NCBI RefSeq assembly: GCF_003334785.1
Contig: NZ_QOWV01000015.1
DNA length: 64,000 nt
Strand: one strand, 5' to 3'
DNA from: Escherichia coli
Lineage (GTDB): Bacteria; Pseudomonadota; Gammaproteobacteria; Enterobacterales; Enterobacteriaceae
The notes under the pieces were generated by a model. It was not told the origin of the DNA. It saw only the letters and a list, made by a program, of their open reading frames with translations, and ran no database searches. Within the stretch, counting starts at the first letter, position 1; every line of letters starts with the position of its first letter. The translations under genes and the position numbers were made by a program. Of the stretch, positions 13,052 through 13,928 are shown piece after piece.

Positions 13052-13654
13052 TTATACCGCCTCGGTCAGTTCCGGCTGAGGCGTTTCCACTCCCTCCGCA
13101 TGAATCAACACCAAACCCGGATGATGCCACAAACTGGCTGGCGTAACGGTTTTACGCTCCCACGGAATAGAACCCAGGAACCAGAATTTCCAGAAAGTGA
13201 GTTTTGCATTCGGATTGCTATTTAACAATTCTCCAAACGTCTCTATTTCACCCACCGGAATACATAGCGCTTCTTTATAAATATCAAAAACAAATTTTGA
13301 ACAGAACTGGCGCGAAGATTCGTATTTAAAACCGGTGTGGTAAAGTTTGCGTAGCCGGGAGGGAACCTGTTCAACAATTCGTTGTTTTTGTTGTTCTGTC
13401 AGCCCAGCGTCTAATCGCTTTATAGCATAGCGTTGATTAGAAGAACGTTTAATAAAACGAGATAGCGTGGTGATGGTTGAAAGGGGGACCCGGCTTTCTG
13501 CAACCAGGAAGTCTTCACCGTTATGACCGATAATGATCCCGACGTGATTACTCCAACAATTTGATGCAGCTGATATTTGACCAAATAAGGCAGCACCTAT
13601 ACATGTAAAGGCGATATCTCCAATTTCATATTCAGCAGGGTAATTAATATTCAC
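13052..13654 (-). CDS. yebB: YebB, uncharacterised protein (putative NlpC/P60-like peptidase fold; fold assignment from memory)
   Basis: Track ORF 13052-13753; 200-aa form from in-frame GTG at 13654; AT-rich; start uncertain. Confidence 0.65.
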
Positions 13655-13859
13655 GTTGTCATTCCATTGAAATAGATACGAATATACGTAATAGCATAAA
13701 AAATTTATTTTTTCAGGAGGCGCAATGTATATTTTTATTACGCATTTTTTCACTGAATATGTAATATTAAAATATTTGCTTCCAAAATAACCTGTAGAAT
13801 AAATTATACTGTGCCATTTTTCAGATCATCGAGACACCTCGCAAGTTTTCTTCATCCTT

Positions 13860-13879
13860 CGCTGGATATCTATCCAGCA
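13860..13879 (+). promoter_or_regulatory. LexA (SOS) box in ruvAB promoter
   Basis: cgCTGGATATCTATCCAGca matches CTG-N10-CAG SOS box about 50 bp upstream of ruvA. Confidence 0.8.
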
Positions 13880-13928
13880 TTTTTTTATCATACAGCATTA
13901 TCTTTGATTCATTACGCAGGAGCGTCAT

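Follow-up and report, generated by a model that had tools for sequence, protein, structure and literature searches.

Why does yebB, one of the remaining uncharacterised enzyme genes of Escherichia coli K-12, lie in antisense orientation between ruvC and the LexA-controlled ruvAB genes, and what does it encode there? We addressed this question in a 64,000-nucleotide stretch of E. coli DNA (assembly GCF_003334785.1, contig NZ_QOWV01000015.1), hereafter called the window, whose positions are used throughout. Positions ~13051-13858 form an AT-rich islet in a short spacer, ~10-15 nt long in most species, that elsewhere in Enterobacterales lies between the ruvC stop codon and a conserved hairpin. 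The account developed below, in which an islet of about 0.8 kb was acquired, displaced one hairpin and holds another, and encodes a circularly permuted enzyme, is in our judgement probable when taken together with the origin, chemistry and regulation that we propose for it.

The evidence that carries this account is comparative. A RuvC-anchored search with one genome per species yielded 80 Enterobacterales loci from the species closest in RuvC sequence, the protein being 85-100% identical across them. In 68 of these 80 species, only 77-232 nt separate the ruvC stop from the ruvA start. A YebB homologue occupies the gap in 6 of the 79 informative species (one further locus is truncated), namely E. 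coli, E. albertii, two Pseudocitrobacter, Citrobacter sp. FP75 and Klebsiella spallanzanii, whose copy is frameshifted; some Salmonella genomes also hold yebB at this site. Five further species carry something other than an intact yebB islet in the same spacer. Klebsiella oxytoca retains a remnant from which yebB has been deleted, and an unrelated two-gene islet is found at four loci, in two Kosakonia, in Enterobacter sp. Bisph1 and, in decayed form, in a metagenome-assembled genome from soil. The gene is thus far from universal between ruvC and ruvA across Enterobacterales, and the old horizontal insertion that the original prediction had proposed is supported both by this distribution, set against 68 conserved empty spacers, and by the position of yebB as the compositional extreme of the window. 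Of 5426 complete E. coli genomes, at most one lacks yebB. The islet is at least as old as the genus.

The short gaps share one architecture, which is common to Enterobacteriaceae and to Erwinia, Pantoea, Rahnella and Edwardsiella: the ruvC stop, then GGCTGGAT-N4-ATCCAGCC, a T run, a -10-like TATGAT and ruvA. The distance from the ruvC stop to the hairpin is usually 9-20 nt, with extremes of a few and ~150 nt. The hairpin has a 9-10-bp stem followed by U7 (dG about -14 to -16 kcal/mol, z -2.7 to -5) and includes the LexA box CTGGAT-N4-ATCCAG, which is kept in 67 of the 68 short-gap loci. Judged by its form, it probably terminates ruvC transcripts while doubling as the operator and -35 region of ruvAB. 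In E. coli the ancestral hairpin, GCTGGATATCTATCCAGC followed by T7 (13861-13885, plus strand, from terminator and promoter scans), still precedes ruvA. Its stem-loop (13861-13878) is down to a 7-bp stem with dG -10.6, and it now lies ~0.8 kb from ruvC. It scores as terminator-like in the scans and overlaps the sole sigma-70-like promoter of the region. Within this hairpin lies the proximal LexA box (13862-13877), which agrees with the LexA consensus at 14 of 20 positions and overlaps the -35 element of the ruvAB promoter, TGGATA-17-TATCAT (13863-13891, plus strand, consensus scan). The same ruvAB hexamers were reported by Shimada 2014 (PMC3946193), where the spacer was flagged for an H-NS site. 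At four loci we also observed GC-rich inserts of 100-150 nt that resemble repetitive extragenic palindromic (REP) elements, placed between the LexA box and the ruvA start in three species (L018:5520-5727, L046:5520-5737 and L078:5520-5737) and upstream of the box in a fourth (L075:5517-5748), which indicates that the ruvA leader tolerates small insertions too.

The two edges of the islet were placed as follows. On the left, between the ruvC coding sequence (12529-13050, plus strand; open reading frame (ORF) list and an identical, annotated E. coli record in RefSeq) and yebB (13052-13654, minus strand; 200 amino acids from a GTG start; RefSeq, Pfam and NCBIfam), the junction is identical in all yebB-bearing genera, with the yebB stop 0-1 nt from the ruvC stop. 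On the right, homology to the other yebB-bearing genera spans yebB, stops by 13668 at the latest and restarts at 13846-13862. We therefore take the whole islet as 13051-13858, between the ruvC stop and the ancestral hairpin with its LexA box; ruvA follows at 13929-14540 (plus strand; ORF list and RefSeq annotation).

Its base composition sets it apart from both neighbours. All percentiles and z-scores given here are relative to this 64-kb window rather than to the whole genome. The window averages 50.3% GC, whereas positions 13052-13928 reach 39.8% (z -3.1), at the 1.9th percentile of windows of that length. The visible AT-richness of yebB and the ~270 bp upstream of it, from which the original prediction had started, is borne out by values of 43.8% GC for the coding sequence (6.7th percentile) and 31.0% for the 274 bp upstream (0.6th percentile), compared with 55.7% for ruvC and 53.8% for ruvA. 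Both of the long A/T runs that it had cited were located, at 13698-13713 and 13759-13779, the second within a small gene, yobI, that had gone unrecognised. Both the GC content of yebB and its GC at third codon positions (GC3) are the lowest among the 58 ORFs of the window, GC3 being 0.388 against a mean of 0.528 (sd 0.048). Other AT-rich patches lie at ~1250-1700, ~51500-52200 and ~54250-54750, in the intergenic regions cutC-torY, yebO-yobF(cspC) and mntP-yobD, with GC over 600 bp down to 0.34; the first two also carry H-NS sites according to Shimada 2014 (PMC3946193). Because these remaining low-GC patches are intergenic regulatory regions, yebB is the sole low-GC coding segment in the window.

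Comparison with homologues elsewhere suggests where such a segment may have come from. The closest YebB homologues outside Enterobacteriaceae belong to Providencia, Proteus and Budvicia (66-73% identity), and those of Providencia and Proteus lie at unrelated loci. Their GC content matches that of the host (0.375 vs 0.388 in Providencia, 0.356 vs 0.350 in Proteus), and so does their GC3. At the ruvC-ruvA site, yebB is poorer in GC than the locus around it, by 4-12 points in E. coli, Pseudocitrobacter, Salmonella and Citrobacter FP75, and its GC3 is under that of the host in E. coli and Pseudocitrobacter. Once established, the islet may have been passed on or lost when its conserved flanks, ruvC and ruvA, recombined.

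The islet also holds a candidate substitute for the hairpin that it separates from ruvC. A 10-bp stem-loop followed by TTTCC (13058-13083, plus strand; folding and covariation) begins 8 nt past the ruvC stop, inside the final codons of yebB. The 71-nt fragment that holds it (13040-13110) has a minimum free energy of -22.3 kcal/mol (z -2.85). Among nine genomes with the islet, pairing holds in 95.6% of cells, against 31-44% in slid controls, and compensatory changes are seen at 4 of the 10 pairs. The hairpin is kept in K. oxytoca despite the yebB deletion, and the unrelated Kosakonia-type islet likewise opens with a canonical terminator. The tail of YebB that it encodes is poorly conserved, is missing from the 192-193-residue Providencia and Proteus proteins and is the only lower-confidence part of the structural model described below. 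We suggest that this hairpin replaces the ruvC terminator displaced by the insertion. A structured RNA as such was rejected, since Rfam returned none for the region and its sole match was a spurious one to a long non-coding RNA at E 0.11.

The protein encoded by the islet can be assigned with some precision. Pfam PF05708 (Peptidase_C92) matches at E 2.6e-44 over residues 43-217 of a longer, 233-residue ORF, and the NCBIfam YebB equivalog NF008547 scores 403.4 bits against a cutoff of 227, compared with 76 bits, below the cutoff of 216, for the YiiX model. Among solved structures, sequence comparison matched E. coli YiiX alone (PDB 2if6, E 3e-17). An AlphaFold 2 model built on a 78-sequence alignment has a mean predicted local distance difference test score of 95.1 and a predicted template modelling (TM) score of 0.90; its top Foldseek match is again YiiX 2if6 (E 5e-17, TM 0.82/0.90, root-mean-square deviation 2.0 A), followed by Bacillus cereus BcPPNE 3kw0 (E 2e-06, TM ~0.6). 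The catalytic residues of YiiX given by Xu 2011 (PMC3142127), His49, Glu64, Tyr115 and Cys128, align with His37, Glu53, Tyr105 and Cys118 of YebB, each of which is at least 90% conserved in the alignment, and His37 precedes Cys118, which is the permuted order. Sequence and predicted fold place YebB, which has no leader, in the YaeF/YiiX family of circularly permuted NlpC/P60 enzymes. The permuted papain- or NlpC/P60-like fold named in the original prediction is thereby confirmed by Pfam C92, NF008547, the sequence match to YiiX, the model and its Foldseek match to YiiX. The family is small, with 629 clusters at 50% identity among 1.8 billion proteins. All 13 YebB-clade proteins have 11-12 residues ahead of the first core strand and no hydrophobic stretch there; a hydrophobic N-terminal leader occurs in 33 of 65 distant homologues. 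YebB is probably cytoplasmic because it is leaderless. Its dN/dS ratio (nonsynonymous to synonymous substitution rates) of 0.03-0.12 indicates a maintained enzyme rather than a relic.

What YebB acts on can be approached through its relatives. Permuted members have hydrophobic S1 pockets, and YiiX holds a fatty acid in its S1 tunnel, for which acyl-amide cleavage has been proposed and whose pocket was judged unfit for a peptide (PMC3142127). LRAT/HRASLS proteins and Tox-Act1 are acyltransferases or phospholipases built on the same permuted core (PMC12994826, PMC7387801). YebB itself has a conserved aromatic-rich segment at residues 152-164 (consensus LxFWxxWFxGxIPW). By analogy with YiiX, LRAT/HRASLS and Tox-Act1, Cys118 may form an acyl-thioester with a fatty-acylated substrate, a mechanism to which we give roughly an even chance, and the substrate class would be a cytoplasmic fatty-acyl amide, ester or thioester.

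The remainder of the islet is not the plain promoter DNA that the ~270 bp upstream of yebB had been taken for: it is AT-rich as described, and it contains yobI together with two predicted back-to-back promoters. The yobI coding sequence (13725-13790, plus strand; 21 amino acids, RefSeq 'stress response small protein YobI' and translation) is preceded by AGGAGG at 13715-13720. Genomic SELEX (systematic evolution of ligands by exponential enrichment) showed binding of RpoD holoenzyme in the yobI-yebB spacer, with TTGTCA-15-TACAAA and CTGAAA-17-TATTAC as best-match promoters of yobI and yebB, respectively (Shimada 2014, PMC3946193). In the window, the predicted sigma-70 promoter of yobI is TTGTCA-15-TACGAA (TACAAA in K-12) at 13656-13682 on the plus strand (SELEX, pattern search and reading of the sequence), and that of yebB is CTGAAA-17-TATTAC at 13688-13716 on the minus strand (SELEX hexamers located in the window). 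The two are interleaved, each -35 lying in the 5' leader of the opposite gene, an arrangement in which the promoters may interfere with each other. The original prediction had the yebB promoter region abutting the LexA-controlled ruvAB promoter, which does not hold, since yobI intervenes. The yebB frame stays open for 33 codons past the GTG, to 13753 (13655-13753, minus strand), giving the 233-residue ORF, which runs antisense over yobI and includes the predicted promoter. The 200-residue GTG start is preferred for both of these reasons, and the extension, which older annotations may have used, looks like a non-coding continuation of the frame.

The segment that holds yobI appears to be young. 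Positions 13669-13858, which also contain a distal LexA-like sequence discussed below, are present in 5403 of the 5426 E. coli genomes and have no counterpart in E. albertii, Pseudocitrobacter, Salmonella, Citrobacter or Klebsiella. The divergent Escherichia lineage L004 has the segment, with the yobI Shine-Dalgarno sequence and ATG lost as well as the CTG of the distal box. The absence of a counterpart in other genera, together with this damage in L004, points to a recent origin of both yobI and the distal box. Among the 5403 genomes, 1434 are only 90-95% identical to the window over the segment, which is variable for core DNA. Other genera carry orphan membrane-protein genes of 220-231 amino acids in place of the yobI segment. 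That YobI is a remnant of those genes was considered and rejected: tblastn of the companion proteins against 13600-13960 gave chance-level matches, the best of them (E 9e-4) antisense to the 5' end of yebB. Literature searches for b1862 and for YobI as a small protein returned nothing useful.

With regard to regulation, published binding data bear directly on the islet. Genomic SELEX placed an H-NS site in vitro in the ruvA-yobI spacer (PMC3946193), and Higashi 2016 (PMC4720273) lists the ruvA-yebB intergenic region (S3 Table) and ruvC (S2 Table) as H-NS bound. H-NS may therefore coat the AT-rich islet DNA and dampen both yebB and yobI; we found no published report of de-repression of either gene in an hns mutant. 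The original prediction had asked whether yebB is silenced by H-NS or coupled to SOS, and the first part finds this much backing in published binding, whereas the promoter geometry set out below argues against the second.

The ruvC-ruvA gap has received other cargo as well. A 3.9-kb version of the islet occurs in nine complete E. coli genomes, for example AST85 (L002:2341-6264), and indicates that the gap is a small variable region. It encodes a 505-residue protein, a diverged yebB (~80% nucleotide identity), a 349-residue protein and a 188-residue membrane protein. The 505-residue protein is membrane-anchored, having hydrophobic segments at its N terminus and, at its C terminus, a domain of the PstS family (TIGR02136, sub-threshold); the proteins of this variant gave no family assignment and no PADLOC match. 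The unrelated islet of ~1.9 kb and host-like GC (L013:5520-7410, L036:5520-7443 and L038:5520-7441; degraded in L037:5520-6286) sits in the same spacer between ruvC and the LexA box. It encodes a 273-280-residue unclassified protein and a 289-residue protein resembling NAD-epimerases and short-chain dehydrogenases/reductases. A hairpin-targeted insertion mechanism, which the use of one spacer by two unrelated islets might suggest, was not adopted: the spacer between ruvC and the operator is the sole place there that tolerates insertion, so that selection explains enough.

Two families of orphan membrane proteins, B and C (L003:6435-7121, L064:6328-7023 and L087:4100-4774; L064:7126-7806, L021:5636-6298 and L002:5492-6058, respectively), are found in the gap next to yebB, or instead of it, in E. 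albertii, Salmonella, Citrobacter and K. oxytoca. Family B is multi-pass with a Cys-rich C-terminal part, and family C has one or two transmembrane segments; neither has a Pfam or NCBIfam assignment. In a collection of 5.8 billion proteins, family B forms 26 clusters from Salmonella and near relatives, with no functional clue. A divergent pair of yebB and a gene for an orphan multi-pass membrane protein of 224-231 amino acids is found in Salmonella, E. albertii and Citrobacter sp. FP75, and the E. albertii companion gene is absent from all 5426 E. coli genomes. Neither YebB nor any of the eight companion proteins of the variant islets gave a PADLOC match, and a known defence system was rejected on that basis.

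Around the islet, the gene order in the window is aspS, nudB, yebC, ruvC, yebB, yobI, ruvA, ruvB and then znuB, and an identical 1.2-kb RefSeq stretch is annotated as ruvC, 'YebB family permuted papain-like enzyme', 'stress response small protein YobI' and ruvA. Elsewhere in the window (2880-5327), torZ is broken into two ORFs, 2880-3497 and 3525-5327, and the matching RefSeq record marks a pseudogene with an internal stop.

Several observations weigh against an acquired islet of the kind proposed, or limit its parts. The window-relative codon adaptation index of yebB is only the sixth lowest (z -0.8), Karlin's B ranks 19th, and codon usage beyond GC3 is unremarkable. No integrase, transposase or other mobility gene is found among the window ORFs, and the islet ends show no direct or inverted repeats and no insertion-sequence remnant. 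Carriage by a phage or plasmid was rejected, as no phage copy was found and the plasmid matches were Mb-scale, non-mobilizable records rather than true plasmids. The donor, which may have been a lower-GC, Morganellaceae-like lineage of Enterobacterales, is suggested by GC content and distribution only. The hairpin covariation comes from nine sequences, a small sample, the yobI and yebB promoters are SELEX-based predictions rather than mapped start sites, and the substrate class is extrapolated from relatives just 26-28% identical over the structural alignment. Finally, the between-genus synonymous divergence (dS) of yebB is similar to or moderately above that of ruvC and ruvA, so that a single old insertion, inherited vertically from then on and lost in places, fits too. 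The same comparability of dS could be read more radically, as a sign that yebB is ancestral at this site in Enterobacteriaceae and was deleted repeatedly, its low GC reflecting a local mutational or functional bias; the shared left junction and the in-situ decay in K. oxytoca and K. spallanzanii agree with such a history. We nevertheless consider it very unlikely, since the empty spacer has the same hairpin in the outgroups Erwinia, Pantoea, Rahnella and Edwardsiella, which independent deletions would not regenerate, since the Morganellaceae homologues occupy other loci, and since GC3 falls below the host at the ruvC-ruvA site in E. coli and Pseudocitrobacter and matches it in Providencia and Proteus. 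The function of YebB can be disputed along similar lines. Because it shares superfamily and catalytic residues with canonical NlpC/P60 enzymes, and BcPPNE was crystallised with a bound amino acid, YebB might be a peptidase of peptidoglycan or muropeptides, for example a cytoplasmic amidase of cell-wall recycling. This is unlikely in view of the hydrophobic S1 pockets of permuted members, the fatty acid in YiiX and its pocket unsuited to peptide (PMC3142127), the action of characterised permuted relatives on lipids and the aromatic-rich segment at 152-164 of YebB.

Two further proposals concern how yebB is controlled and what it is for. A network inference based on expression covariance and a high-scoring site predicts yebB as a LexA target (PMC2689187), and two CTG-N10-CAG sequences do lie in the yebB-ruvA interval, as expected if yebB belonged to the SOS regulon and were repressed directly through boxes shared with ruvAB. 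The distal one (13809-13824), however, is a weak and uncertain LexA-like sequence with 11 of 20 consensus matches (counted by hand on the 20-mer 13807-13826); CTG-N10-CAG occurs at 26 sites in the 64 kb, and the distal sequence is not conserved in the sister lineage, L004, so that its status as a second SOS box is left uncertain. The proximal box is older than the islet and serves ruvAB. Neither box (13809-13824 and 13862-13877) overlaps or adjoins the predicted yebB promoter, whose -35 (13711-13716) is separated by 93 bp from the distal sequence and by 146 bp from the proximal one, with the whole of yobI between. With the nearest box at least 93 bp away and yobI intervening, direct LexA repression of yebB is unlikely, and we regard its membership of the SOS regulon on these grounds as quite doubtful. 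The variable content of the islet and the divergent pairing of yebB with a membrane-protein gene in Salmonella, E. albertii and Citrobacter sp. FP75 recall a conflict module instead, in which YebB would attack lipids, as a toxin or in defence, and would have the neighbouring membrane protein, or YobI, as its immunity protein or partner; the permuted NlpC/P60 toxins Tox-Act1 and TseH do have membrane-associated immunity proteins. Yet YebB lacks a leader as well as any domain for secretion or trafficking, PADLOC was empty for every islet protein, yebB is kept without companions in E. coli, Providencia and Proteus, K. oxytoca has a companion and no yebB, and the gene is near-fixed in E. coli under purifying selection, all of which make a conflict module highly improbable.

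An acquired, H-NS-bound islet encoding a cytoplasmic permuted enzyme remains the reading that we prefer. A more integrated version of it can be imagined, in which the insertion split a bifunctional element, yobI arose inside the insert, and the output of YebB, YobI and RuvAB became coupled. The yobI promoter would then compete head-to-head with that of yebB, the yobI transcript would end at the hairpin that holds the LexA operator, and the coupling would be mediated by interference between the promoters together with H-NS and LexA occupancy; YebB would have a stress-linked role as a cytoplasmic de-acylase or acyltransferase of lipids or lipoproteins. We offer this only as a speculative synthesis with a low probability of being right.

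In summary, the locus is a compact and well-delimited case of a small foreign insert accommodated beside a core SOS operon. The one ancestral hairpin probably terminated ruvC transcripts as well as serving as operator; ruvC has since gained another, which came with the insert or evolved in it, and a micro-gene, yobI, arose within the inserted DNA. The gene yebB, its family and the binding of H-NS were already on record, and current understanding is not overturned; the comparative details, that is, the split of terminator from operator, a substitute hairpin within yebB and the recent gain of yobI, are tidy and unsurprising. For the enzyme itself, the absence of a leader, the intact Cys-His-Glu-Tyr set and its selective maintenance narrow the substrate search, and since relatives in the clade bind fatty acids or cleave phospholipids, cytoplasmic acylated molecules are the first candidates.

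Set beside known systems, YebB most resembles YiiX (2IF6), with which it shares the Pfam family, a superposable predicted fold and the same His, Glu, Tyr and Cys residues in the same permuted order. It differs in being only 26-28% identical, in having its own equivalog, NF008547, in lacking the first ~20 residues of the YiiX profile (it aligns at positions 24-201) and any hydrophobic leader, and in sitting within a horizontally acquired islet. BcPPNE (3KW0), the second-best fold match, has the same catalytic tetrad, but identity is 16% and BcPPNE itself has a restrictive S1' site with bound lysine. The LRAT/HRASLS proteins and the type VI secretion system toxins Tox-Act1 and TseH share the permuted His-then-Cys core and the acyl-Cys thioester chemistry on lipids on which our mechanistic proposal is based; they belong to other clades, to which YebB gave no significant sequence or fold match, and they are membrane-anchored or secreted, whereas YebB is neither. 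As a locus, the yebB islet is like other H-NS-bound acquired islets of E. coli in being AT-rich relative to the host, patchy in distribution and, according to published data, occupied by H-NS both in vitro and in vivo. It differs from them in that the effect of H-NS is known as binding only, in being tiny (0.8 kb, with one enzyme gene and a micro-ORF), near-fixed and without mobility genes, and in being wedged at the boundary of a core DNA-repair operon.

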